A stretch of DNA of 64,000 nucleotides from Candidatus Moraniibacteriota bacterium (GCA_013334245.1 JAAXXZ010000004.1:127-64126); one strand, 5' to 3'; shown: positions 37,861 to 61,773, counted from the stretch's first letter. Notes: generated by a model not told the origin, from the sequence alone. Program-made: numbers and translations.

Positions 37861-37912
37861 ATGGATGTGGTTGGTTGTTGTCAGTTGTTCGTTGTCGGTT
37901 GTAAGTTCAGAC
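37861..37912. repeat. GTTGTCAGTT / GTTGTAAGTT repeat-unit block upstream of the tRNA-Ser fragment
   Basis: GGTTGGTTGTTGTCAGTTGTTCGTTGTCGGTTGTAAGTT. Confidence 0.45.
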
Positions 37913-37916
37913 AAAG

Positions 37917-37980
37917 GAGAGATGGCCGAGCGGCTGCCAGCTAGATGCCGGCCACCCTTTGGGTGAAAGGTGGCTCGCTA
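37917..37980 (+). other. Truncated duplicate of the tRNA-Ser 5' end (21 nt identical to the start of the downstream tRNA-Ser, then diverges; no matching 3' acceptor strand)
   Basis: GGAGAGATGGCCGAGCGGCTG at 37917 and at 38044; no TCTCTCC acceptor complement follows the first copy. Confidence 0.45.
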
Positions 37981-37984
37981 TTAA

Positions 37985-38040
37985 CGAATAGTTGTTCGTC
38001 GTTCGTCGTTCGTGGTAAGTTGTCAGTTATTAGTTAAATA
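37985..38040. repeat. Third GTTGTxAGTT-unit repeat block
   Basis: AGTTGTTCGTCGTTCGTCGTTCGTGGTAAGTTGTCAGTTATTAGTTAA. Confidence 0.45.
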
Positions 38041-38043
38041 TTC

Positions 38044-38130
38044 GGAGAGATGGCCGAGCGGCTGAAGGCACCACACTGCTAACGTGGCATGGGGTAACAC
38101 CCATCGAGGGTTCGAATCCCTCTCTCTCCG
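38044..38130 (+). tRNA. tRNA-Ser (GCT), class II with a long variable arm
   Basis: GGAGAGA acceptor, anticodon loop CTGCTAA, long variable arm, T-loop GGTTCGAATCC. Confidence 0.85.
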
Positions 38131-38365
38131 CACAGAGGGACAAGCGACTCCGAGAGGGTCGCTTTTCCTTTTCCTTGCGGCGCTTTCGGCGGTTCGAAGG
38201 TGCCGTTTCCGGCACGGAGGGATGTTGCGTCTTTTGCGGGACTGTTTTTTCTTGCGTTACGGTATCGGCAGGAATCGTCTATTCTTATGGCATGATAACT
38301 GCTAAAATGAAATCAAAGGAAAACAAGAGCATTCGGAATACGTTATAGTACCTGAAAGGAAACAT

Positions 38366-39079
38366 ATGAAAACGATTATGCAAAACCGATCCTTTTTGTC
38401 CGGAATCCGTTTCGTGGCTTTCGCGTCCGCCGTTTTGGCGTTCACGCCGACGCCGTTTTCCAGTCACGCATCCGCAGCAACCACATGCTCTCCAACGGTT
38501 ACGGTTACGGATACCGGGAAAACGTCCGTCAAACTCAAGGTCGCCTGTAGCAATCTCGTCAGTACGAAAGTAAGCGTGCGGTTATTGGCTACCAATGAGG
38601 AAACCGACAAGGATTCAAAAAAAACGGTTACGGCGAAGCTTGGAAAAAAAGGGACGGTTACCATTAAGCTCTCGGGACTTGATTCGGCCACGGGCTATTC
38701 CTTCAAGGCGAAAGTGAAAAAGAACGGAGGTGCGTACGGGGCCTATTCCGATGTGGTCGAGGCGACGACCGAAGGGGCTGATTACGATGTATCGATCGAC
38801 AAGATTAGTAGCATTACCGAGAGCTCTGCGAAACTCCGCATCACGTGCGAGGATCTCGAAGATGAGGATGTGACGTTGATGGTCGCATACAAGAAAAAGA
38901 CGTCCTGGTCGACGAAGACGTATACGCTGACTTTGGACGGCGACGGCGAAGGGGTGGTCACGGTCGACGGACTCAAGTCGGATACGACATACAGCTTCAA
39001 GACGCGAATTAAGAAGGACGACGATTCGATATATTCCCAGTATTCGGAAGAGAAGTCAGCGACGACCGACGAAGATTGA
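38366..39079 (+). CDS. Secreted protein with fibronectin-type-III-like repeats
   Basis: Signal peptide; two repeated about 100-aa beta-sandwich-like modules (TV..T..SVKLKV.C / SAKLRITCEDL); GC about 50%. Confidence 0.5.
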   Translation: MKTIMQNRSFLSGIRFVAFASAVLAFTPTPFSSHASAATTCSPTVTVTDTGKTSVKLKVACSNLVSTKVSVRLLATNEETDKDSKKTVTAKLGKKGTVTIKLSGLDSATGYSFKAKVKKNGGAYGAYSDVVEATTEGADYDVSIDKISSITESSAKLRITCEDLEDEDVTLMVAYKKKTSWSTKTYTLTLDGDGEGVVTVDGLKSDTTYSFKTRIKKDDDSIYSQYSEEKSATTDED

Positions 39080-39101
39080 GGTACTCATTAAACAAACGCA
39101 T

Positions 39102-39452
39102 ATGACCGCTTCGCCCAGATGGCTCTCGTTCGCTGCCGCAGGCATCGTCATAACGGCACTCATTATCGGCGGATGGTATGTCGTATTCAGAGATACCGAT
39201 ACGGTGAAAACCGGCTCAGTCGGCAAGGAGCGGTTTTCGGAAACGACTTCGGAAACAACTCCCTCATCCGCTGTTTCCTCCGAGTCGGAACCGCAGGAGA
39301 AGGAGCTCCCGGCGAAAAGTACCGGTGTGCTCGTCGGTGCGACGGCAAGCCATGATGAGTCCGACGATTTTTCCCGAGGAACACAGGAGGACGATGATGA
39401 GATCGATACCGATGACAGTATCTCCGTCGATGTGGAGACCGAGGAAGAATAG
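39102..39452 (+). CDS. Small membrane-anchored acidic protein
   Basis: One TM followed by a Ser/Glu/Asp-rich tail. Confidence 0.35.
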   Translation: MTASPRWLSFAAAGIVITALIIGGWYVVFRDTDTVKTGSVGKERFSETTSETTPSSAVSSESEPQEKELPAKSTGVLVGATASHDESDDFSRGTQEDDDEIDTDDSISVDVETEEE

Positions 39453-39676
39453 CGGATAGGACTTTTTCGTGGTTCCTGACGACGATACCGAGCCTCTTTT
39501 TCTCAGGATAAGAAGGGGTCGGTATCGTTATAAATGGCGGGTCCGGAGAGGGTGTCAGAAAATTTTTTTCTTGTCGCCGAGAGGCGATAGCACGACGCGC
39601 CTGCCCGTAAACGGGTTGGCGTTTTTCAAAAACCCCTAAATTCTTAGTAATCCTTGCCTTTTCGCCCCAGAGGGGT

Positions 39677-42445
39677 ATGGTGGAGGTGTTAGTATCAGTA
39701 AAAAGGTACCTGATCCCTTTTCTGCTAAGCAATATGGCCACTGTATTGGACAAAATTGAAGTAATAAACGAAAAGATCAATAAGAATATTAGCATTCTTG
39801 GAAGTAGTCAGAGAGGTCTTGCATCTCAGGATATTCTTAAAAGCCTGCGTGATTTAATCGAGCATACTGCTGTTTTGATTCATGTGGGAAGTGAAGCAGA
39901 ATTCAACCGTGTTACAAAAGATGCGGGTATGTCCCACATCAAACAAGATCCAGGTAGGTATAGTTTTTTGTACAGATTTCACGACAGAATACAGCTAGCC
40001 TTGTCTCACTATGAGCCAAATGAGAGTGACGCGGAAATGCTTATGCTGGGCTACATGCACGACTTGTTTCTAGTAAAAAAATTTTACATTGAAAACTACA
40101 AACATAGCCTATTGCAGGAGTTGCGGAATTATCCGCTAAACCTTGATCCTGGTTTGTCGGAATACTACAAGGCGGTAATTGAAAAACTAAATAATGGTGA
40201 ATATGAAAAAGAGGCAGATAGAGCTGATTTTTACATTGATAGAGTAAAGCCTTTAATTATTGATGACGAACTGTATTACGAAGTAACCTTTCGTCCTGCG
40301 ACAAACAATTTTGCAAAGTTCAATAAAACAGTTGCCTTTACAAGGCAGAGAATTACAACAAATTACGCCCTCCGACTTAGATTGGCACGTACCCAAATAA
40401 ATGTATTTGACACTAAATCGCGCGCTTTGATTATTTTGGATTACGAAATATCGATACGACCTTGTGAGATACAACACCTTGGGATGATATTTGATCGAGG
40501 CTTTACATTCAATAGCAGAGACAAAGAGTACCAGAATTTAATGAGCGCTCTTAAGGTGAGTCAACTTACACTTTTGGAAATAGCCATTTTGTCCGAGGAG
40601 AGGTATGAAAAGTTTAAGCAGTATATAAGTGCTGGTACGAGTTCTGTAAACATCAAAAATGTCATTGAAAAATGTCGACAGGTAATTTTGAATAACAACG
40701 ACGGTGCAAATATACTCAGGTATCTCCTTACCAACCTAAACAATGTTGTATTAAAGAAACAACTCTTTCAAGAACCATGCGGTATTCTTTCCAATCTATA
40801 CTTGAAAAATAGTTGCAAAGTATTCGATACCATGCCTTTTTGCTCATCGTTGAAGGAACACAATCCAACGAAACTTTCATTAATCAATTGCATATCTCCA
40901 GAGGGCAGGCATCATGAATTTTTGGCAAGGCGCGTGAATCAAAACACAAGAACTCGGAAAATTCTCTATACTCCGTTAGATGAAGTTGAAAAAGTTTATG
41001 CTGTAGACAAGGAGATTGAGACCTTCAATTCAAAAGTGTGGTGGGGACATAAACCTAAGCGATTACTAAGAAAATACTCTAAATATATATACGAGCATGG
41101 TGCAGAGAGTGATTGTTACGAAATATATACCAAATTATTAAGTTTTACCGATTCTTGTATTAAAGACTATCAAACACTTATTGATTTGTGGCTTGATCAG
41201 CAAGTTGAAAATGTAATTGATTCAGAGCAGAAGAAACAGGCGCTACGGCAGCTCTTTGCTAAATCTAGCGTAGCTCTGATTTATGGATCAGCAGGTACAG
41301 GTAAAACAAAGATGATCGAATATATCGACAGTGTTTTTCTTGGCGAAAAGAAAGTTTTTTTATCCAACACATGGGCATCAGTGAATAACCTTAGACATAG
41401 AATTGGTGAAAGCGACAGACGTTTTTTTTCGACAGTTTCTTCCTACTTATGCCACATAGATCATTACGATGAGGCGGAAATACTTTTTATAGATGAGTGT
41501 AGTACGGTGTGTAATGACGATCTGCTGAAAGTATTAAAACATAAGAAGTTTAAGAAAATTGTGCTAGTTGGTGATGTGTACCAAATTGAAGCAATAGATT
41601 TTGGAAATTGGTTTTATCTCTGTAAGAATTTATTGCCCGAGCATTGTATTTTTGAACTAGATGACACACATCGAACTAAGAAAGAAGATCTGAAATTATA
41701 CTGGTCAGCTGTTCGGAATGCTGTTTATGAGGTTCGTGAAATTGCATCCAGAGGACAATTCTCTCAGCCAATCGACCAATTTATAAAAAGTTACAAAGAT
41801 AGCGAAGATCAAATTGTACTGTGTTTAAATTATGATGGATTGTACGGAATTAACAATTTAAACAAATTACTACAAGAAAAAAACCCAAATGAGGGAATAG
41901 ATTGGGGAAGTGTTCATACATATAAAGCTGGAGATCCGATTATTTTCACTGAGACATCGAAATATGCTCCTGTTTTGTACAACAATCTAAAAGGACGTAT
42001 AACAAAAATTACTGCTAGTAGTGACGAAATACAATTTGAAATAATAATTGATTATTCGCCCAACCCGTTTGATGCGCAGAGTCGCGGTATTAAATTTTTA
42101 GAAAATCTTCCAGAGGGAAAGTCCAAGATAGGTTTATCCGTCAGCAAACTAGAGAATGTCGATGAAGATTTAGATGATTCTGACAGATTAGTTCCATTCC
42201 AAGTATCCTATGCCACGTCTATTCATAAGGCTCAGGGTTTAGAGTATAAAACTGTAAAGCTTGTTTTTGTTGATGAAGTTCAAGATATGGTTACTCATAG
42301 CATCTTTTACACAGCTATAACCAGAGCAAAGGAAAGGTTAGAGATATATTGGTCGCCTGAAACTGCAAGCAAGGTATATGAGCGCATTAAATCAAATTTA
42401 AACAAAAAAGATGCGTGCATTTTTAAAAGCAAATTTAAGCTATAG
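39677..42445 (+). CDS. 922-aa protein: about 500-aa N-terminal domain of unknown function fused to a C-terminal RecD/Dda-like SF1 helicase core
   Basis: Walker A GSAGTGKT, Walker B ILFIDECS, motif III VLVGDVYQ, motif V/VI SYATSIHKAQGLEYKTV; about 35% GC versus a 60% backbone; alternative start ATG 39743. Confidence 0.7.
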   Translation: MVEVLVSVKRYLIPFLLSNMATVLDKIEVINEKINKNISILGSSQRGLASQDILKSLRDLIEHTAVLIHVGSEAEFNRVTKDAGMSHIKQDPGRYSFLYRFHDRIQLALSHYEPNESDAEMLMLGYMHDLFLVKKFYIENYKHSLLQELRNYPLNLDPGLSEYYKAVIEKLNNGEYEKEADRADFYIDRVKPLIIDDELYYEVTFRPATNNFAKFNKTVAFTRQRITTNYALRLRLARTQINVFDTKSRALIILDYEISIRPCEIQHLGMIFDRGFTFNSRDKEYQNLMSALKVSQLTLLEIAILSEERYEKFKQYISAGTSSVNIKNVIEKCRQVILNNNDGANILRYLLTNLNNVVLKKQLFQEPCGILSNLYLKNSCKVFDTMPFCSSLKEHNPTKLSLINCISPEGRHHEFLARRVNQNTRTRKILYTPLDEVEKVYAVDKEIETFNSKVWWGHKPKRLLRKYSKYIYEHGAESDCYEIYTKLLSFTDSCIKDYQTLIDLWLDQQVENVIDSEQKKQALRQLFAKSSVALIYGSAGTGKTKMIEYIDSVFLGEKKVFLSNTWASVNNLRHRIGESDRRFFSTVSSYLCHIDHYDEAEILFIDECSTVCNDDLLKVLKHKKFKKIVLVGDVYQIEAIDFGNWFYLCKNLLPEHCIFELDDTHRTKKEDLKLYWSAVRNAVYEVREIASRGQFSQPIDQFIKSYKDSEDQIVLCLNYDGLYGINNLNKLLQEKNPNEGIDWGSVHTYKAGDPIIFTETSKYAPVLYNNLKGRITKITASSDEIQFEIIIDYSPNPFDAQSRGIKFLENLPEGKSKIGLSVSKLENVDEDLDDSDRLVPFQVSYATSIHKAQGLEYKTVKLVFVDEVQDMVTHSIFYTAITRAKERLEIYWSPETASKVYERIKSNLNKKDACIFKSKFKL

Positions 42446-42530
42446 TAGAAACTTACGACATTAACATGAGTTACACAAAATCATTTTAAAAAATTGCACC
42501 AACAGCTTTTTAAAAATGAAGCGGAGAGTC

Positions 42531-42555
42531 AGAAAAGGGGTCAGGCACTTTTTTA
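42531..42555 (+). other. 24-nt motif GAAAAGGGGTCAGGCACTTTTTTA, 85 bp downstream of the helicase-like gene (copy A)
   Basis: 22 of 24 positions identical to 61014-61037 (copy B) downstream of the OLD-family gene. Confidence 0.5.
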
Positions 42556-42830
42556 TTCTCATCATTGATCTAATCAATTGAAATAATTTTCCAATGAGTT
42601 GTTGAGGCGATGCGGATGCGTTTTCCCTCAACCCAGCCCTTTCCCAACGGGAGAGGAGGTACAAGGTCGGTTTTCTGATATTGGGGCAAAGATTCCCGTT
42701 TCCACGGGAATGACAAAAACTGAATCGGATTCGAGAGTCGGAATATTGGAAGATGTGGTGTCGAATTGCCGAATTACCGATCTGTTATTATTCCGGTAGA
42801 TTGATTTCGATATCCTGAAATGAAAACGTT

Positions 42831-44850: not shown

Positions 44851-45021
44851 TAAGCACTTCGAATTGGGATAATGCCCTTTGGTTTTTTCTTTCGATATGA
44901 TTACGTCAGAATGGATAAGTGGGGTCTGCTGTCTGTCATGAAAAAATGGTTTTTGCTTTCTTGTCTCCCGAAGACGGTATATACTAGGGTAGATTTCCGA
45001 TTGACTGTGCCGTTCCTGCGT

Positions 45022-48000
45022 ATGAAGATAAACCGAGTCGTCTTAGTTCCGATTTTACTGGGTGGGTTGTTCATGTTTTCGTGCTCCGCTTCGGCGGCAA
45101 CGTTATGGGAAGACACCTTCGATCGCGCCGATGGTGCGGTGGGGAACGGGTGGGTCGGAACGGGTGACACCACAGCCGAAATTTCCAGCAACGCTCTTCA
45201 TAGGACCTCTTCCGACGGGTATACTATCTATTATAATCCAGCCGGTGGCACGCTTCCGGCAGATTATTATATTACGGTTACATTGCCGAATTCTCAAATC
45301 AGGAGTCATTTTTGGGGGATTATTGGAAGATATCTTCCGCCGGGTTCAGGCATGGGAAGCGGTAATAAGATTTTTTGGACCGATCAAGGCTTTATGTCAT
45401 CGGGTGTCGGAAATGCCGAGTATGAGAACAATTTTTCTTTGACGATGACAGGCGGATATCCGGAAAGCTGGTCGCTTGATCAGGATCATTCCGTGACTCT
45501 CCATTATCAGGATTCGAGGGTCACGGCCTATCTCGATGGGGAAGAATTGGGCTATTTTACAGACACAACGAATGATCAGGTCGGAACTGGAGTCGGGTTT
45601 GTTGGTGACAATGGAACCTTCCGTGATATTCGCGTGACTGATGATCTTCCAAAATATCTCCCGTTTGGGTCGGATGCGGTGGACCCGATCGTTTCAAATA
45701 TCTTCTCGACGACCACGGAGTCCGACGCGACAATTGTGTGGAATACGGATGAATTGACCCAGGTGACGATCGAATATGGCCTTACCGACGCATATGGAAG
45801 TTCCGTTTCCACCGAGGCCTGGACAACCAATCACTTGATGACGGTTAGCGGGCTCTCTGCTGGAACGACTTATCACTACCGCATCGTCTCGAACGATTTC
45901 GCCGGTAACGTAGCCGAGTCCTCAGACTATATATTATCAACGATAGCTTCCGGAGACGTGTATTGGACTGATGATTTTCATCGGGAATATGGTGCCGTGG
46001 AAAACGGATGGGTCGGTGTCAATTCGGCGGTTGGCCTCATTTCAAATGATATCTTGGAACGAACCGACGAATATCAATACCGGATTCTTTATAACCCAGC
46101 TGGTGGAGCTTTGCCGCAAAATTATTATCTGACGATGTTCGTTCCGCAGTCGACACTGGATGGAACTTTTTGGGGACTTATTGGCCGGTATTTTTCACCC
46201 GGTTCTGGTATGGGTACCGGAAACAAGGTGTTTTGGATGGATGGTGGAATTCAGTCGGCCGGAGTAGGAAATGCCGAGTTTGAGAATAATTTTTCTTTGA
46301 CGGTTACGGGGGGATATCCGGAAAGCTGGTCGCAAGATCGTGTGCATATGGTGACACTTGGCTATAATGGAAACACCGTTACCGTTTATCTTGACGGAGA
46401 AGAGCTCGGATATTTCACGGATACGACGAACAATCAGACTGGCACGGGAATCGGATTGGTCGGAGATGGCGGTGGTGACTTTTTTGTGCTCGGGACGAAA
46501 GTGACGCAAGCACTACCGGTTTTTTTGGCAGCCGGAGCAGAGCCGGACACAAATCCACCCACATTGTCACTGATAAGTGTCAATCCTGCCGAAACGACCG
46601 CCGCCGTTTCTTGGACGACAGATGAAGAAGCCAATTCATTTGTCGAATATGGATTGACGGACACATATGGGAACACCGCTTCTTCGGTTTCAATGACGAT
46701 GTCACATACTCTCGCACTTTCCGGGCTCACGGCTGGGACGACCTATCATTATCGTGTCGCTTCGACCGACGCTTCCAGCAATACGGCAACTTCAGAAGAT
46801 GCGACGTTTACGACCGATCCAGAAGGATCTACTCCGGAGGAAGTGGTGTTTCACACAACGGGTGCGACATTTTCCCCGATTTTGACAGTTGCGGACGGAG
46901 CCGTGATTGAATGGACTTTTCACGACGGGACTACGTCTAATTCAGCCTCGCCAACCAAAGCTTATGGGAGTACGGGAAACAGGGAAAACCGTTTGACGGT
47001 GACTCCGTGGAGTGCGCTGACCGAGGTGAATATCGGGTATGACGGAGGGGACGATGGGACGTTGCCAAATCCACACCTAGTACAACAAAATGTTACTGCG
47101 GTGGATGGTATGGAATATATGGCGCCGTATCTTCGCGTCTGGGCTTCATCGCAGAACCCCATAGCATCGCTTGATTTTTCCGATTTCATCTCCCTACGCA
47201 CCATTGAGTGTTTTCTCTGTCAGCAGATGACCTCAGTTGATCTTTCAAACACTCCATCGCTTGTCCGTGCGAATTTCGAGGATAATAACTTGCAGAGTCT
47301 CAATCTCTCGGAAAGTCCGGCTCTTGAGGATCTTCGCGGAGCGAACAATGGATATACGGAAATTGTCTGGGGGGATACCGGAGATAATGTGTGGCATATT
47401 TGCACGAGAGATAATCCTCAATTGAATGTAAATTTTCCTGATATGTCCCGATATCCACTTCTTGAGGAACTGTGGATCTGGAACGATAATCAAACTGGAA
47501 CGCTTGCTCCGACATCGTCCGCTCTCCGCTCGGTTCAGGCATTTGACAATCACTATACGGCAGCAGATTTTTCTGGGTTGTTTCCGTCCGGCCGGGCCGC
47601 CGAGGTGAATGTAAGCGGGAATGATCTGACGCATCTTGATGTTTCCGATAATCCTGGGCTTATGTGGCTTTATGCACAGGACAACGATCTTGATCAGGCG
47701 ACGGTTGATGCCGTACTCCACGATCTTGCAACGGTGCCAAACGGTCATAATTCCGGAGTGCTTGATTTGACTGGAAATGCGGAGCCATCGTTTTCAGGGC
47801 TTGATGACGTCTCCATTCTTGAAGCTCGAGGGTGGACGGTATCCGTGGACGGTGACGGTGTCCCCAGCGAGCCTATCGACATCTTGTACCTCAATACGTC
47901 TGCTGGATCTACGAGTGCGATTGTTTTTTGGAATACTACCAGGGAAGGGACATCGGTTATTGAGTATGGGACCGATACTCATTTTGGGTCGACTGTTTCT

Positions 48001-49647
48001 TCCGATGTAATGACTACATCGCACCATATTCTGTTGGAAAATTTACTTCCAGATACCTCGTATGTCTTCCGTGTGACGTCCGAAGATAGTGAAGGAGGCA
48101 TATTCAGTATATCAGAGAGTACTTTCCGAACGAGAGCCACGGGAGTGACCTATTGGGAAGACGACTTTCATCGGGCAGACGGATCCGTTTCGAACGGGTG
48201 GGTTTCGGTGAACGGCGCGGTGGGCGAGATCGAAAGCGAGTCACTGCTCCGCTCCGATCAGGATGACTATCGTATTTTGTATCATCAGACGGACGGGGAT
48301 TTGCCTGCGGACTATTTTGTCACCATGACGATACCGAATTTGACCGCCGGCCGTAGCTTTTGGGGACTGGTCGGACGGTATCTGCCACCGGGTGCGGATA
48401 ACGGGACCGGTACGCAGGTGTTTTGGGGCGATCAGGGTCGCGATGTGTTGAACCCGGGCAATCCGTATTGGGATAGCGTCTTGCCGATTACGGTGACGGG
48501 TGGGATTCCGGAAACATGGAACGAAAATCGTGTACATGCGGTCACGCTCGGATATGCCGGCGATGCGGTGACGATTTACCTTGACGGCGAGGCGTATGGA
48601 ACGCTCCAGAATAACACGAATATACAGACAGGGACCGGTATCGGTATCGTCGGTGACGGCCGCGGAACGGCATTCGGCGTGCTTGATGTTCGTGTGACGG
48701 ATTTTCTTCCGGATTATTCGGAACAGGTCGGCGACGAAGCTCCAGAGGTGACTTCTTTTGTCCTTCCTGAGACGTCTAATTCTTTGGTCGTTCCGATTTC
48801 CCTATTTACCGCAACGGACGATATCGGCATCACAGGATACCTGATTACGGAATCGCCGGACAATCCCGCATACGATGATCCGATGTGGAGCGTGTCGGTT
48901 CCTACCATGTTCAATTTTTCAACTGAGGGGGAGAAGACCCTTTATGCGTGGGTGAAGGACGGGTCGGGGTCGATATCGTCTTCTCTGAGCGAAACGGTTA
49001 TCGTGCGGATCGTTGATTCCGTGGCAGATGACGATACGGAAGATGACGGTGAAGAACGCGAGGAAGCGCCCGATGACTTCGAGATATCGAACGTGAAATA
49101 CGGGGTAATTGGTTCGGATAGCGTTCGGATATCGTTTTTGACGAGTAATGAGACGCGGGCGACTATCCGATATGGGACGGAATCGAACCGGTTACATCGG
49201 AAGCGAACCGAAGATCGGAAAGGGAAGCGACACACTGTTATCTTGCGAGATCTTGTCCCTGGAAAACGGTATTTCTTTCGGGTTTCCGCCGAAGACGATT
49301 ATGACCAGGATGATCGGAGCAGGATTCATTCCGTTGAACTCCCATCGCTTTCGAAAGCAGCGCCAGTCGTTTCATCCGCAGTTTCGGTGGGAAAGCCTGT
49401 GAAGATTCCGGTTTCAGTTCCGGGCGACACCCCGGTTTTTCCCGATGTTTTGCCTGAATCCGCGCCGCAGGACCTTGATAGCGAAACGCATAATACAGAG
49501 GATGTTGGTTCGGAAAGTAAAGGAATGGAGTTGACCGATAGAAATGAAAATACGGTGTCATCGTCGCCGGACGATTTGATCCCATCCACCTCGAGTGGAG
49601 CCTCGTCATTTGTCTGGTGGAACCCTTTCACCTGGTTTAAAAAATAA
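45022..49647 (+). CDS. Giant secreted surface protein with three LamG/ConA-like lectin modules alternating with FN3 domains and an LRR-like segment
   Basis: Signal peptide; three copies of W.DDFHR.DG.V.NGWVG...FWGL.GRY..PG...G.G...FW.D.G; FN3 blocks (YHYRV); LRR-like LSNTPSL..NLSESPALEDL; GC about 48%. Confidence 0.6.
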   Translation: MKINRVVLVPILLGGLFMFSCSASAATLWEDTFDRADGAVGNGWVGTGDTTAEISSNALHRTSSDGYTIYYNPAGGTLPADYYITVTLPNSQIRSHFWGIIGRYLPPGSGMGSGNKIFWTDQGFMSSGVGNAEYENNFSLTMTGGYPESWSLDQDHSVTLHYQDSRVTAYLDGEELGYFTDTTNDQVGTGVGFVGDNGTFRDIRVTDDLPKYLPFGSDAVDPIVSNIFSTTTESDATIVWNTDELTQVTIEYGLTDAYGSSVSTEAWTTNHLMTVSGLSAGTTYHYRIVSNDFAGNVAESSDYILSTIASGDVYWTDDFHREYGAVENGWVGVNSAVGLISNDILERTDEYQYRILYNPAGGALPQNYYLTMFVPQSTLDGTFWGLIGRYFSPGSGMGTGNKVFWMDGGIQSAGVGNAEFENNFSLTVTGGYPESWSQDRVHMVTLGYNGNTVTVYLDGEELGYFTDTTNNQTGTGIGLVGDGGGDFFVLGTKVTQALPVFLAAGAEPDTNPPTLSLISVNPAETTAAVSWTTDEEANSFVEYGLTDTYGNTASSVSMTMSHTLALSGLTAGTTYHYRVASTDASSNTATSEDATFTTDPEGSTPEEVVFHTTGATFSPILTVADGAVIEWTFHDGTTSNSASPTKAYGSTGNRENRLTVTPWSALTEVNIGYDGGDDGTLPNPHLVQQNVTAVDGMEYMAPYLRVWASSQNPIASLDFSDFISLRTIECFLCQQMTSVDLSNTPSLVRANFEDNNLQSLNLSESPALEDLRGANNGYTEIVWGDTGDNVWHICTRDNPQLNVNFPDMSRYPLLEELWIWNDNQTGTLAPTSSALRSVQAFDNHYTAADFSGLFPSGRAAEVNVSGNDLTHLDVSDNPGLMWLYAQDNDLDQATVDAVLHDLATVPNGHNSGVLDLTGNAEPSFSGLDDVSILEARGWTVSVDGDGVPSEPIDILYLNTSAGSTSAIVFWNTTREGTSVIEYGTDTHFGSTVSSDVMTTSHHILLENLLPDTSYVFRVTSEDSEGGIFSISESTFRTRATGVTYWEDDFHRADGSVSNGWVSVNGAVGEIESESLLRSDQDDYRILYHQTDGDLPADYFVTMTIPNLTAGRSFWGLVGRYLPPGADNGTGTQVFWGDQGRDVLNPGNPYWDSVLPITVTGGIPETWNENRVHAVTLGYAGDAVTIYLDGEAYGTLQNNTNIQTGTGIGIVGDGRGTAFGVLDVRVTDFLPDYSEQVGDEAPEVTSFVLPETSNSLVVPISLFTATDDIGITGYLITESPDNPAYDDPMWSVSVPTMFNFSTEGEKTLYAWVKDGSGSISSSLSETVIVRIVDSVADDDTEDDGEEREEAPDDFEISNVKYGVIGSDSVRISFLTSNETRATIRYGTESNRLHRKRTEDRKGKRHTVILRDLVPGKRYFFRVSAEDDYDQDDRSRIHSVELPSLSKAAPVVSSAVSVGKPVKIPVSVPGDTPVFPDVLPESAPQDLDSETHNTEDVGSESKGMELTDRNENTVSSSPDDLIPSTSSGASSFVWWNPFTWFKK
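45098..48690 (+). repeat. Three copies of an about 530-bp coding repeat (LamG-like module) at about 45098, 45960 and 48150
   Basis: About 75% nucleotide identity between modules 1 and 2, readable directly from the sequence. Confidence 0.5.
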
Positions 49648-59179: not shown

Positions 59180-60946
59180 ATGCGATATATAAAGTTTCTG
59201 ATTCGTAATTATAAAGGAATAAAGTCATTAGAGTTGGATTTAGATTTATTCCCCGATCATAAAATCTATACACTAGTTGGTCTAAATGAATCGGGGAAAA
59301 CAACCATACTTGAAGCAATAAATGATTTTGAATTTGATGTCTCAGTTAATAAGCGGCATCTGTTAATACCGAAGAGTTCGGCGGGAGGTTTTACTGGAGA
59401 TATCGCAATAAAAGCAACGCTTCAATTTTCTGAAGATGATAAAGGGAGAATAATTGCCTTCATTCGGTCGAGGATTAAGGTAAGTGAAGTGTTTGTCTCT
59501 GAAACTTTAATCATAGAACGAAAATATAGTTTTAAAAACTCTACGCCGTATGAGTCTAAAAGAACATACGAAAAATATGTAAAAATAAAAAAGACTGCAA
59601 AAGGAAAGCCAGTTGATTTGGATGAAAGTATATCCAAAGAACTGTGGAGTTTTATTAAGGAAACGATGTTTCCTGAGATAATCTTTTATCGTGATTTCCT
59701 TTCTAAATTTCCGGAGAAGATTTACTTAGATGCAGAAGATCCTAAAGATAAGAACTATCTATCAATTATTGAAGATATTCTTACTGCTATAAATCCTGAT
59801 TATAACGTTCAAAATAGTCTCTTAGACAGACTGGACGATTCAACTGATGCTGCAAAAAAACAAGCGCTTGAAGCAGTCGAGAATGACATGGGCGCGAAGA
59901 TTTCTAAAGTAGTGTTTGACGCATGGAACAAGATACTAAACGTAAGTAAGAAAGAAATTGTTGTTAAGGCAGAATATGATGCCGAGAAGGGAAGATATTA
60001 TCTTCGATTGAGCGTAAAAGATGGTCATCAAACTTACGCCGTTGCTGAGCGGAGTCTAGGATTTCGATGGTTTTTCACTTTTCTTTTATACACAGAATTT
60101 CGAAAGGAAAGGATAAAAACTTCAGGAGAAATCTTGTTTATTTTGGATGAGCCAGCATCAAATCTTCATCAGACTGCGCAACAAAGCTTACTTGAAACAT
60201 TTCGTACAATAACAAGCAAATCACGACTAATATATACAACACATAGTCATCATTTGGTGAATCCAGAATGGTTAAGTTCCGCATATATTATTCGAAACAA
60301 AGGTCTTAAGTATAATGAGAGTGATGATTATAATCTAACGAAGACGGAAATTGAAGCATTTAAGTACAAGCAATTTGTTTCAAAATACCCGACCGAAACC
60401 TCGTATTTTCAGCCGATTTTGGATGTGTTGGATTATAAGCCAGGCTTACTTGAGCTGATTCCCAATATCGTAATAACAGAAGGAAAATTCGACTATTTTA
60501 CCTTTAGATATTTTAAAGAGATAGTTTTCTCGGACTTGACTGATGGCTATAGATTTTATCCTGGAATGGGCGCTTCAAGCTTAGACCTACCTATTTCCTT
60601 ATATGAATCATGGGGTAAAGGATATTTGGTTTTACTTGATTCGGATAAGGAGGGCCGTGATCAAAAGGAGCGTTATATTAAAGATATAAGCGATACTCAG
60701 CATATCTATACTCTTGAGGATTGTTTTTCAGATTTAAAAAATTCAACGACTGAAAAAGTATTTACTGAAACGGAAAAAATTGAAATCTCTAAGGAGTTTA
60801 ACAGTGAGCTTACTGAATATAATAAAAACGCTTTTAATACGGGAATTCAGATTCTGTTAATGCAAAAACGTATTCCTGACTATTTAACTGATGAAACAAA
60901 GAAAAAGATGAGGAAGATTATCGAATTTATCAACGGTAAAATATAA
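59180..60946 (+). CDS. OLD-family nuclease (N-terminal ABC-type ATPase plus C-terminal Toprim)
   Basis: Walker A GLNESGKTT, Walker B ILFILDEPASNLH, H-loop TTHSHH; Toprim Glu (ITEGKFD) and DxD (LLDSDKEG); about 33% GC. Confidence 0.7.
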   Translation: MRYIKFLIRNYKGIKSLELDLDLFPDHKIYTLVGLNESGKTTILEAINDFEFDVSVNKRHLLIPKSSAGGFTGDIAIKATLQFSEDDKGRIIAFIRSRIKVSEVFVSETLIIERKYSFKNSTPYESKRTYEKYVKIKKTAKGKPVDLDESISKELWSFIKETMFPEIIFYRDFLSKFPEKIYLDAEDPKDKNYLSIIEDILTAINPDYNVQNSLLDRLDDSTDAAKKQALEAVENDMGAKISKVVFDAWNKILNVSKKEIVVKAEYDAEKGRYYLRLSVKDGHQTYAVAERSLGFRWFFTFLLYTEFRKERIKTSGEILFILDEPASNLHQTAQQSLLETFRTITSKSRLIYTTHSHHLVNPEWLSSAYIIRNKGLKYNESDDYNLTKTEIEAFKYKQFVSKYPTETSYFQPILDVLDYKPGLLELIPNIVITEGKFDYFTFRYFKEIVFSDLTDGYRFYPGMGASSLDLPISLYESWGKGYLVLLDSDKEGRDQKERYIKDISDTQHIYTLEDCFSDLKNSTTEKVFTETEKIEISKEFNSELTEYNKNAFNTGIQILLMQKRIPDYLTDETKKKMRKIIEFINGKI

Positions 60947-61013
60947 TTTGGACATTCAGATAATGGTCTATATTCAATATTTCGAATAAATTCCCCCTAC
61001 TTGTCGCGTATCC

Positions 61014-61037
61014 GAAAAGGGGTCAAGTACTTTTTTA
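61014..61037 (+). other. 24-nt motif GAAAAGGGGTCAAGTACTTTTTTA (copy B), 68 bp downstream of the OLD gene
   Basis: Matches copy A at 42531-42555 at 22 of 24 positions. Confidence 0.5.
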
Positions 61038-61140
61038 ACGTCTTCTCGACAGACCATCGGAAATATGCCGGATATTAAGATGTGAAAAATGCAGGCGATG
61101 ATTGATAAATATTTCTATAATTAAATTGTAATTAAAAAGT

Positions 61141-61773
61141 ATGTCATATTGCTCGATGTGTGGAACCAAGGCAAATGATGGCGCAATCTTTTGTTCTAAG
61201 TGTGGATCGAATTTGCAAAAGGGCCAACCCTCTGATCTTGAGGTAAAAGAAATTCGGTCAGAAAGTAATATCAGTTTTTTTTCCATATCAAACAAGCGTC
61301 TTGCTCTGTTTTCTGTTATCACGTTCGGCCTATACGAGATATTTTGGTTTTATAAAAATTGGAGTGCAGTAAAAATGGCCGAAGGCAAGAAGATCGCACC
61401 ATTCTGGAGAGCTATATTTGCTGTATTTTTCTGTCACTCACTTTTTAAGAAAGTTCTTGAATCAGCTAAAAGTCATTCATATACCAAATCGTATTCTCCT
61501 GGTTGGCTAGCTGCAGGGTATATTATTATTCTTTTTATTAATAATGCTTTGAGTAAAGCAGAATCTACTGATATAAGTACTCTTTTGTTGTTACTGTTTT
61601 CTTTGATTTCATTTTTGCCTTTGTTGCCAGTCCAAAATGCGATTAACTATAATAATGAACAATTAAAGGGTGCGATGCCGTTGAAACATGGTTTCTCTGG
61701 TGGGGAAGTTACAATTATAGTAGTGGGTATCATTTGGTTTTTTCTGGTACTCGTTGGTACGTTCTCGGCGTGA
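61141..61773 (+). CDS. Zinc-ribbon-anchored membrane protein (DUF4234-like)
   Basis: N-terminal CSMCG...CSKCG ribbon, GLYEIFWFYKNW motif, 4 TM; AT-rich like the OLD gene. Confidence 0.5.
   Translation: MSYCSMCGTKANDGAIFCSKCGSNLQKGQPSDLEVKEIRSESNISFFSISNKRLALFSVITFGLYEIFWFYKNWSAVKMAEGKKIAPFWRAIFAVFFCHSLFKKVLESAKSHSYTKSYSPGWLAAGYIIILFINNALSKAESTDISTLLLLLFSLISFLPLLPVQNAINYNNEQLKGAMPLKHGFSGGEVTIIVVGIIWFFLVLVGTFSA

Follow-up and report, generated by a model that had tools for sequence, protein, structure and literature searches.

Single polypeptides in which an N-terminal nuclease-type domain is joined to a C-terminal superfamily 1 (SF1) helicase are found amongst the antiviral proteins, as in Nhi and the Schlafen group III proteins. 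Giant proteins that combine HEPN, SF-I helicase and wHTH (winged helix-turn-helix) domains occur in modification-independent defence contexts, and DNA recognition by the wHTH together with a suicidal RNase action has been proposed for them (PMC3710099). The PDC systems, or "phage defence candidates", have been nominated by "guilt-by-embedding", their homologues being embedded in BREX, DISARM, type I restriction-modification (R-M) or Hma loci (bioRxiv 10.1101/2024.01.29.577857). We describe here a helicase-fusion gene, assigned to one such family, PDC-S53, in a stretch of 64,000 nucleotides from a Candidatus Moraniibacteriota bacterium (GCA_013334245.1, JAAXXZ010000004.1:127-64126), which is referred to below, at its full length, as the window.

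PDC-S53 is widespread and flagged as a defence candidate; in the searchable literature we found for it neither a domain map or domain dissection nor a mechanism or a test. In the explanation that we prefer, the gene is a recent horizontal acquisition from a low-GC donor, an accessory gene encoding a single-polypeptide candidate anti-phage module, in which a nucleic-acid-sensing helicase is combined with a HEPN RNase effector. Taken as a whole, we give this explanation about an even chance of being right. The present work sets out the bounds and family of the gene, the predicted domains of its product and the conserved residues on which the proposed RNase site rests, and weighs four alternative explanations against the evidence from the protein, from its relatives and from the repeats that flank the gene.

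The gene, its family and its predicted domains

The maximal open reading frame (ORF), 39677-42445, encodes 922 amino acids, as a preliminary description of the window had it, though the real start is probably internal. M20 is the shared start of all homologues, of the PADLOC profile and of an identical NCBI protein of 903 amino acids (annotated "MAG: AAA family ATPase", Candidatus Moranbacteria bacterium), and for this reason we place the start of the gene at 39734, so that it probably encodes 903 amino acids plus the stop. The gene has a GC content of 0.361 and a GC content at third codon positions (GC3) of 0.336. The 1-kb windows outside it average 0.548 +/- 0.053 in GC, and the backbone around it is of about 55-58% GC, with GC3 of 0.62-0.80. 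The drop in GC comes at about 39700 and the return at about 42600, the AT-rich DNA running past the stop codon. Only the helicase gene is compositionally foreign here, a single AT-rich gene in a GC-rich, Moranbacteria-like genome, and the low GC of the ORF, the return to backbone composition after it and its character as a lone foreign helicase fusion agree with the preliminary description. Scans for promoters and terminators around the gene found sites no commoner than in shuffled sequence.

A scan of defence-system profiles, which the preliminary description had proposed, matched a single-gene candidate over its full length. The PADLOC profile PDLC05035 (PDC-S53) aligns with residues 20-920 of the 922-residue form over profile positions 1-894 of 900 (E=0, 1019.2 bits), and by this match the helicase-fusion protein is a full-length member of PDC-S53, an already catalogued family of defence candidates, with the same length and architecture and with no difference in sequence seen. 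The family returns more than 1,200 database matches, of which the best 120 are nearly all of about 900 amino acids, three shorter entries being fragment-like. With the N-terminal 461 residues alone as query, 598 cluster representatives (50% identity) were recovered, in nearly all of which the matched region lies at the N-terminus of a protein of about 900 amino acids; from this near-constant position we take the fusion of the N-terminal region to the helicase to be ancient and fixed.

The C-terminal half is predicted to be an SF1B helicase. The preliminary description had recognised a RecD/Dda-like SF1 core with Walker A, DE, III and V/VI motifs, all of which are intact (in the 903-residue numbering, GSAGTGKT at 518, DECS at 587, GDVYQ at 613, HKAQGLE at 831 and TAITRA at 860), and the SF1 motifs are invariant in 53 homologues. 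Pfam places AAA_30 at 518-681 and UvrD_C_2 at 844-888 (922-residue numbering), both above their cut-offs, with further matches to Viral_helicase1 and, weakly, to SLFN-g3_helicase. The NCBIfam models for RecD2 (TIGR01448) and RecD (TIGR01447) score 99.6 and 98.3 against cut-offs of 500 and 310.15, respectively, and there is weak similarity to the helicase domain of the TraA relaxase. By sequence the nearest solved structures are those of RecD2 (3e1s), RecD (1w36_D) and Pif1, and by analogy with these relatives the enzyme would translocate 5'->3' on single-stranded DNA (ssDNA).

The N-terminal half was described beforehand as without recognisable motif, and Pfam is indeed silent for the first 480 residues even at E<=10; these residues find no sequence match in the PDB either. 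An AlphaFold2 model of the region, built from a 23-sequence alignment (pLDDT 85.8, pTM 0.81), shows a helical bundle at about residues 1-155, a beta module at 165-239 and a mixed region at 243-470. A Foldseek search of the N-domain against the PDB gave nothing significant; in fold comparison, the bundle, with four helices in an up-down arrangement, resembles solved HEPN domains, and lower-ranked HEPN matches include TTHA0636, AF0298, another HEPN toxin, LsoA, Csm6 and Roquin. The earlier hunch that a HEPN or sensor fold lay hidden in the N-terminus is therefore borne out at the level of the fold. Several polar residues are invariant in the winged-helix region, namely R242, E245, R315, N326, Y330, N337, Q343, H376, E395, R399 and N432. 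The predicted architecture is thus a HEPN-like bundle, a putative oligonucleotide/oligosaccharide-binding (OB) fold and two winged helices, followed by the SF1B helicase (Table 1).

Proposed mechanism, a putative RNase site and the family's distribution

The histidine of the HEPN Rx4-6H motif is placed where helix-3 ends and the loop to helix-4 starts, and a conserved acidic residue of helix-2 lies near the active site; the arginine of the motif is usually followed by a polar residue, and in some families the His is kept and the Arg lost, other basic residues substituting for it (PMC3710099). In the AlphaFold2 model, helix-2 spans residues 32-51, helix-3 73-92, the loop 93-96 and helix-4 97-122. 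Conservation was computed over 216 full-length members of the family: H92 (40007-40009), at the end of helix-3, is kept in 214 of them (99%) and the adjoining S91 in 96%, while in helix-2 R39 (39848-39850) is present in every member and E43 in 93%; H44 is a histidine in only 37%. H92, R39 and E43 thus stand at the positions described as catalytic for HEPN domains (PMC3710099), which supports the presence of a HEPN effector. Both R85-x6-H92 and R39-x4-H44 occur in this protein, the former in all 28 members of its clade and the latter in 27 of these, and the invariant R39 of helix-2 may substitute for the motif Arg, by analogy with the His-only HEPN families.

Proof of HEPN identity at the level of sequence was sought and given up: with E<=10 as the limit, Pfam gave no HEPN family for any of 43 divergent N-terminal segments, PDB profile searches returned no HEPN chain, and hhalign against an AbiV sequence gave a probability of 0.2%. 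Judged by helix position and conservation, a variant HEPN RNase site within residues 1-155 is plausible but unproven.

In the mechanism that we propose, the OB and winged-helix modules would recognise a nucleic-acid structure of phage infection, be it ssDNA, DNA ends or replication intermediates, upon which the ATP-driven SF1B helicase would load and translocate. The action of the helicase would then switch on, or bring into position, an RNase activity of the HEPN-like domain at the N-terminus, and the cutting of host or phage RNA by this domain would stop the infection in an abortive-infection-like manner. Such a mechanism parallels that put forward for the giant HEPN, SF-I helicase and wHTH proteins (PMC3710099), a precedent for fusions of this kind in defence contexts, and also the logic of PrrC/RloC, Nhi and Schlafen group III.

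The relatives of the gene provide a second line of evidence. Members of the family are found in many phyla, including Patescibacteria of the candidate phyla radiation (CPR), and their spread across phyla is patchy. Close relatives (72-88% amino acid identity) lie on unrelated contigs, where the homologous genes hold a GC of 0.32-0.37 in surroundings of 0.34-0.47; in a Gracilibacteria metagenome-assembled genome (MAG) the homologue agrees in GC with its surroundings, and this points to a donor lineage of low GC. The gene neighbourhood differs at every locus examined and there are no conserved partner genes. Several of the settings are of the defence type, next to or inside R-M and McrBC loci as guilt-by-embedding expects, although the gene in the window is not so embedded. 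In Lysobacter oculi the order is HsdRSM, McrBC, homologue and tyrosine integrase, and at another locus (L067) a type I R-M system, the homologue, DUF5677, RhuM and Vsr are found, with McrBC beyond; one homologue (L003) lies in an R-M/methylase island, with a serine recombinase about 5 kb away, and one further homologue adjoins a 1756-residue NACHT protein. Full-length members occur in 2 of 50,697 phage records and 5 of 72,556 plasmid records. In the Erysipelothrix phage phi1605 the homologue lies in an accessory region and has as its neighbours Dam, recombinases and a restriction enzyme of type IIS, and on a Lactiplantibacillus plasmid of 10.6 kb it is cargo adjoining a toxin-antitoxin pair. 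The single-gene anti-phage module of the preliminary description is supported by the PDC-S53 match, by the R-M, McrBC and NACHT neighbourhoods of the relatives and by their prophage and plasmid accessory regions; the tRNA footprint, which is treated below, is not supported. Of eight PDC/HEC candidates assayed in E. coli four were protective (PMC12881386), a base rate that favours the defence reading.

At two other contexts, L001/L002 and L066, the homologue lies among housekeeping genes, with a large serine recombinase as its neighbour. Together with that of L003, these recombinases (Resolvase, Recombinase and Zn_ribbon_recom domains; L001:10726-12009, L002:7448-8731, L003:1544-2866 and L066:7276-8550) place such an enzyme near PDC-S53 homologues in three independent contexts, a hint that they provide one of the means by which the gene is moved. 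In the L005/L006 lineage a small XRE-type helix-turn-helix gene (L005:4241-4414, L006:55-297) ends 4 nucleotides before the start of the helicase gene, for which it may serve as a dedicated regulator; the window has no such gene.

Several points weigh against the defence reading as we have framed it. The 145 PDC systems are candidates by definition (bioRxiv 10.1101/2024.01.29.577857; Payne et al.), and no mention of PDC-S53 and no experimental record of it were found in any searchable literature text or supplement; nor was PDC-S53 one of the eight candidates assayed in E. coli (PMC12881386). The Arg of the Rx4-6H motif is present in only 37 of the 216 family members, and in the clade of the window protein the residue that follows it is I or L, hydrophobic rather than polar. 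No defence genes adjoin the gene in the window, its neighbours being the small acidic membrane protein and an AAA_33 kinase, and the three relatives beside large serine recombinases would fit a generic mobile-element cargo equally well. With these points counted, we regard the defence reading of the gene as reasonable but unproven.

The alternative that survives best, which we nevertheless consider rather unlikely, is that of a defence protein whose HEPN-like bundle lacks catalysis and serves in sensing, regulation or oligomerisation. The helicase itself would then be the effector; it might, for instance, unwind or strip the replication or recombination intermediates of the phage, or recruit nucleases of the host. 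The lack of the motif Arg in the remaining 179 members, the variability of H44 and the silence of the HEPN sequence profiles speak for it, as do the helicase motifs, in which conservation is stricter than anywhere else in the protein; non-catalytic HEPN domains are, moreover, common (PMC3710099). Against this, the four residues H92, S91, R39 and E43 are 93-100% conserved among members that share only 26-40% identity, which is hard to explain by a purely structural bundle, H92 falls exactly at the canonical catalytic position, and His-only HEPN families with a substitute basic residue are documented (PMC3710099).

We think it distinctly unlikely that the protein is instead the cargo of a mobile element and works for that element, be it an integrative element, a prophage or a plasmid, as a helicase for replication, for transfer or against defence, with the copy in the window as a remnant. 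The serine recombinases described above, the integrase near the Lysobacter homologue, the occurrence of the gene in two phage genomes and on plasmids, and the weak resemblance to the TraA helicase domain speak for it. The gene is, however, rare amongst phage and plasmid records and sits in their accessory or R-M regions rather than in replication or transfer modules; the Pfam search reveals no relaxase, primase or replication-initiator domain, no partner genes are conserved, and no genes of mobile elements surround the helicase gene in the window.

Flanking repeats and neighbouring genes

The features of the locus are collected in Table 1. Two copies of a repetitive extragenic palindromic (REP)-like core form a 26-nucleotide inverted repeat, 88% complementary, at the two GC breakpoints, 2.8 kb apart. 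A third copy, 61012-61037, lies 65 nucleotides past the stop of a second AT-rich gene (59180-60946), and the three copies in the window compare with none in 100 shuffles. In these copies the core forms a weak hairpin, with z from -2.0 to +0.8.

Table 1. Features of the helicase-fusion locus, with positions counted from the first nucleotide of the window
Feature	Position	Strand	Remarks
tRNA-Ser(GCT)	38044..38131	+	ARAGORN and Rfam agree; context only
FN3-like secreted protein, 237 aa	38366..39079	+	signal-peptide-like N-terminus, FN3-like repeats; backbone-like
Small acidic membrane protein, 116 aa	39102..39452	+	one hydrophobic helix, acidic tail; backbone-like
Element X, about 155 nucleotides, host-lineage dispersed sequence	39573..39726	-	REP core at gene-proximal end
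REP-like core, upstream copy (CAGAAAAGGGATCAGGTACCTTTTTA on minus strand)	39699..39724	-	9 nucleotides before M20 start codon
Helicase-fusion gene, PADLOC PDC-S53 member	39734..42445	+	profile match; identical 903-aa protein; homologues of about 900 aa; start probable
HEPN-like four-helix bundle, aa 1-155 (predicted)	39734..40198	+	fold-level resemblance to solved HEPN domains
OB-fold-like beta module, aa 160-240 (predicted)	40211..40453	+	conserved Y167, Y182, E183, K195, Y211
Tandem winged-helix region, aa 243-470 (predicted)	40460..41143	+	fold resemblance to solved winged-helix domains
SF1B helicase core (RecD2/RecD/Pif1/Dda-like), aa 480-903	41171..42442	+	Pfam, motifs; Walker A 41285-41308
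REP-like core, downstream copy	42530..42555	+	84 nucleotides after stop codon

The upstream copy lies within a longer sequence, element X, of which 158 nucleotides recur at 87% identity in another Moraniibacteriota genome (L044:270-427); that locus was dropped as a syntenic counterpart of the window, the 158-nucleotide element alone being common to the two. Element X also holds a terminator-like hairpin (39599-39616) and the palindrome CCCCAGAGGGG, while the other two copies in the window share with it only the core and a block, AGGCRAKGATT, some 50 nucleotides away.

Exact matches to the 23-nucleotide core GAAAAGGGGTCAGGTACCTTTTT were found at 58 loci (L007-L064) in GTDB species genomes of many phyla, where by our own estimate about 0.3 would be expected by chance, and there are often several copies per MAG. 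Near-identical forms of it occur in Patescibacteria, Planctomycetota, Bdellovibrionales, Acidobacteriota, Polyangiales, Binatia, Omnitrophota and others. Many copies form close inverted doublets, and genes for IS200-like Y1 transposases (PF01797, E 7e-13 to 2e-20) adjoin the motif at four loci (L019, L023, L038 and L061), in the last of which the Y1_Tnp gene is bracketed by inverted copies. From this association with Y1_Tnp genes, the inverted doublets and the multiple copies we conclude that the flanking motif is, as judged from its sequence contexts, a REP of the REP-associated tyrosine transposase (RAYT, IS200-like Y1) family. Between Patescibacteria and Planctomycetota the transposases themselves share 49-54% identity. 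REPs are usually species-specific, and the conservation of one REP core across phyla is unusual.

An inverted repeat set precisely where the low-GC DNA begins and ends invites the explanation that the helicase gene moved as a REP-gene-REP unit, a cassette mobilised by a RAYT; the REP identity of the motif, its position after a second AT-rich defence-type gene, and three other loci at which a REP abuts AT-rich AbiV/Panacea, HsdS or other cargo would be in keeping with it. The nearest homologue, with 88% amino acid identity (L102), largely refutes this cassette: it has neither REP nor element X, and at the nucleotide level it resembles the window only from the ATG onwards. These same observations are our grounds for taking the repeats to be host-side and, on this comparison, not carried with the helicase gene. 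Loci with 72-77% identity share no flanks with the window, element X runs into DNA of host GC and recurs without the gene in the other Moraniibacteriota genome, the repeats face the helicase gene in the opposite orientation to those that bracket the RAYT gene, elsewhere the genes next to a REP are mostly ordinary ones, REPs show no overall association with low GC (p=0.21), and the window has no RAYT gene. We therefore hold the cassette to be very improbable.

A general link of REPs with low-GC or defence DNA was likewise rejected, on the same p-value and the same ordinary neighbours, the pattern being confined to a small Moranbacteria subset. The core stands, as it does in the window, at a sharp GC step at three Moranbacteria loci and one Bdellovibrionales locus (L011:189-2062, L024:1-1080, L022:335-1579 and L007:7625-7999). 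The AT-rich genes that end at the REP are, in L011, those for AbiV, a Panacea-domain protein and an uncharacterised protein, in L024 that for a type I R-M HsdS, and in L022 those for NUDIX and peptidase S51 proteins.

In the window itself, the second AT-rich island (59180-61773, GC 0.34-0.39) lies 17 kb from the helicase gene. Its first gene encodes a 588-residue ABC ATPase of the OLD/AriA/GajA/AbiL type (AAA_15/AAA_21; PADLOC AriA, 5e-23), the C-terminal 230 residues of which are unassigned, and after the REP core comes a gene for a 210-residue Zn-ribbon/DUF4234 membrane protein; the island is probably a second acquired defence-type module. From the few loci with a GC step at the REP, too small a sample for statistics, REPs may mark sites in the Moranbacteria lineage at which foreign or defence cargo lands. 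A bolder proposal has two parts: a new form of single-protein immunity, in which an SF1B helicase with OB and winged-helix sensors licenses a variant HEPN RNase (His in helix-3 with Arg/Glu in helix-2) and so triggers abortive infection, and, separately, cross-phylum RAYT/REP elements that mark or create Moranbacteria hotspots for AT-rich defence cargo (PDC-S53, the OLD/AriA-like ATPase, AbiV/Panacea and HsdS). That both parts should hold together is speculative, and we rate the pair as unlikely.

The helicase gene lies 1.6 kb downstream of a tRNA-Ser(GCT), correctly noted in the preliminary description, in which the gene was framed as part of a tRNA-adjacent island. No second copy of the tRNA 3' end, and hence no att repeat, is present within the window, no integrase was found among the ORFs at 36-45 kb, and the intervening ORFs are backbone-like; for these reasons we reject the tRNA as an integration site, and with it the island. 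The truncated copy of the tRNA 5' end exists (37916-37936) but sits upstream of the tRNA and not between it and the segment. It belongs to a 67-nucleotide direct repeat (37870-37936 and 37998-38064; 72% identity, 128-nucleotide spacing), a duplication of the region upstream of the tRNA together with its first 21 nucleotides, of which the upstream copy is not called as a tRNA by ARAGORN or Rfam.

The secreted FN3 protein and the small acidic membrane protein previously described were both recovered with these features. In Pfam the former matches CRLF2-like_D2 above its cut-off and fn3 slightly below, and the tail of the latter has 26 D/E against 8 K/R. The two ORFs had been read as a step of about 50% GC leading into the foreign DNA. 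Their GC3 (0.64 and 0.62, respectively) matches that of the downstream kinase (0.65) and not that of the helicase (0.34), so there is no intermediate foreign block; GC of 0.49-0.53 is also seen in other backbone stretches of the window. Both ORFs are missing from every homologous helicase locus examined.

The kinase has no relatives in the metagenome contigs, and the 34 relatives of the Nramp transporter encoded next to the site (L068-L101; 62-89% identity, on contigs of 0.34-0.55 GC) have no neighbours in common with the window; the latter pattern reflects either a very fluid gene order in these organisms or exchange of the Nramp gene itself. Directly after the Nramp gene, a 1591-residue ORF (44872-49647, about 0.50 GC) with many FN3, PKD and purple-acid-phosphatase-N-like repeats encodes a large surface or secreted protein.

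Relation to known systems and significance

The likeness of the protein to Nhi, with its DNA nuclease fold, and to Schlafen, with its slfn-core RNase, is only analogous. No Nhi model is among the PADLOC matches, and for Hhe (helicase, HEPN and Vsr) there is likewise no model among them and no Vsr or transglutaminase domain in the Pfam search. With the giant HEPN, SF-I helicase and wHTH proteins it has in common an N-terminal HEPN-type domain, an SF1 helicase and winged helices. It differs from them in lacking the Vsr endonuclease and the transglutaminase, in having a putative OB fold instead, in the placing of its winged helices between the HEPN-like domain and the helicase rather than C-terminally, and in its much smaller size of only 903 residues. 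Towards the HEPN RNase effectors (HEPN-MNT toxins, Csx1/Csm6, LsoA/RnlA, AbiV and PrrC/RloC) it shows no sequence-profile similarity and no family-wide conservation of the motif Arg; its HEPN-like domain, the RNase activity of which is putative, precedes a helicase and not an ABC ATPase or CARF domain.

The helicase core motifs are like those of RecD2, RecD, Dda and Pif1, which give the best solved-structure matches, whereas the N-terminal domain of RecD2 is unrelated to the N-terminal 480 residues here, and the gene is predicted to be accessory rather than one of repair. That it should be a repair helicase of the RecD2 type with a housekeeping role, to which an accessory domain peculiar to the lineage was added, as its best NCBIfam and PDB sequence matches might suggest, has next to no probability, being contradicted by scores below the equivalog cut-offs, a foreign GC3, a patchy cross-phylum spread with variable neighbours and a lack of synteny.

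As for the repeats, the position of the motif beside Y1_Tnp genes, its inverted bracketing, its close doublets and its several copies per MAG are as in known REP/RAYT systems, while the near-identical core across phyla, the weak hairpin in the window and the spacing of 2.8 kb around cargo are unlike them.

The family was already catalogued; what is new here are the corrected bounds of the gene, the rejection of the tRNA island, the domain map with its candidate catalytic residues and the recognition of the REP/RAYT elements. The domain map names H92, R39, E43, R85 and K524 (Walker A) as candidate functional residues. Separately, the REP/RAYT elements offer a lead to the way in which defence genes of foreign origin come to be embedded in these genomes. 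If the proposed function were confirmed, a HEPN-helicase single-gene system would be added to the defence repertoire, and symbiotic CPR bacteria with small genomes would be seen to import such systems.

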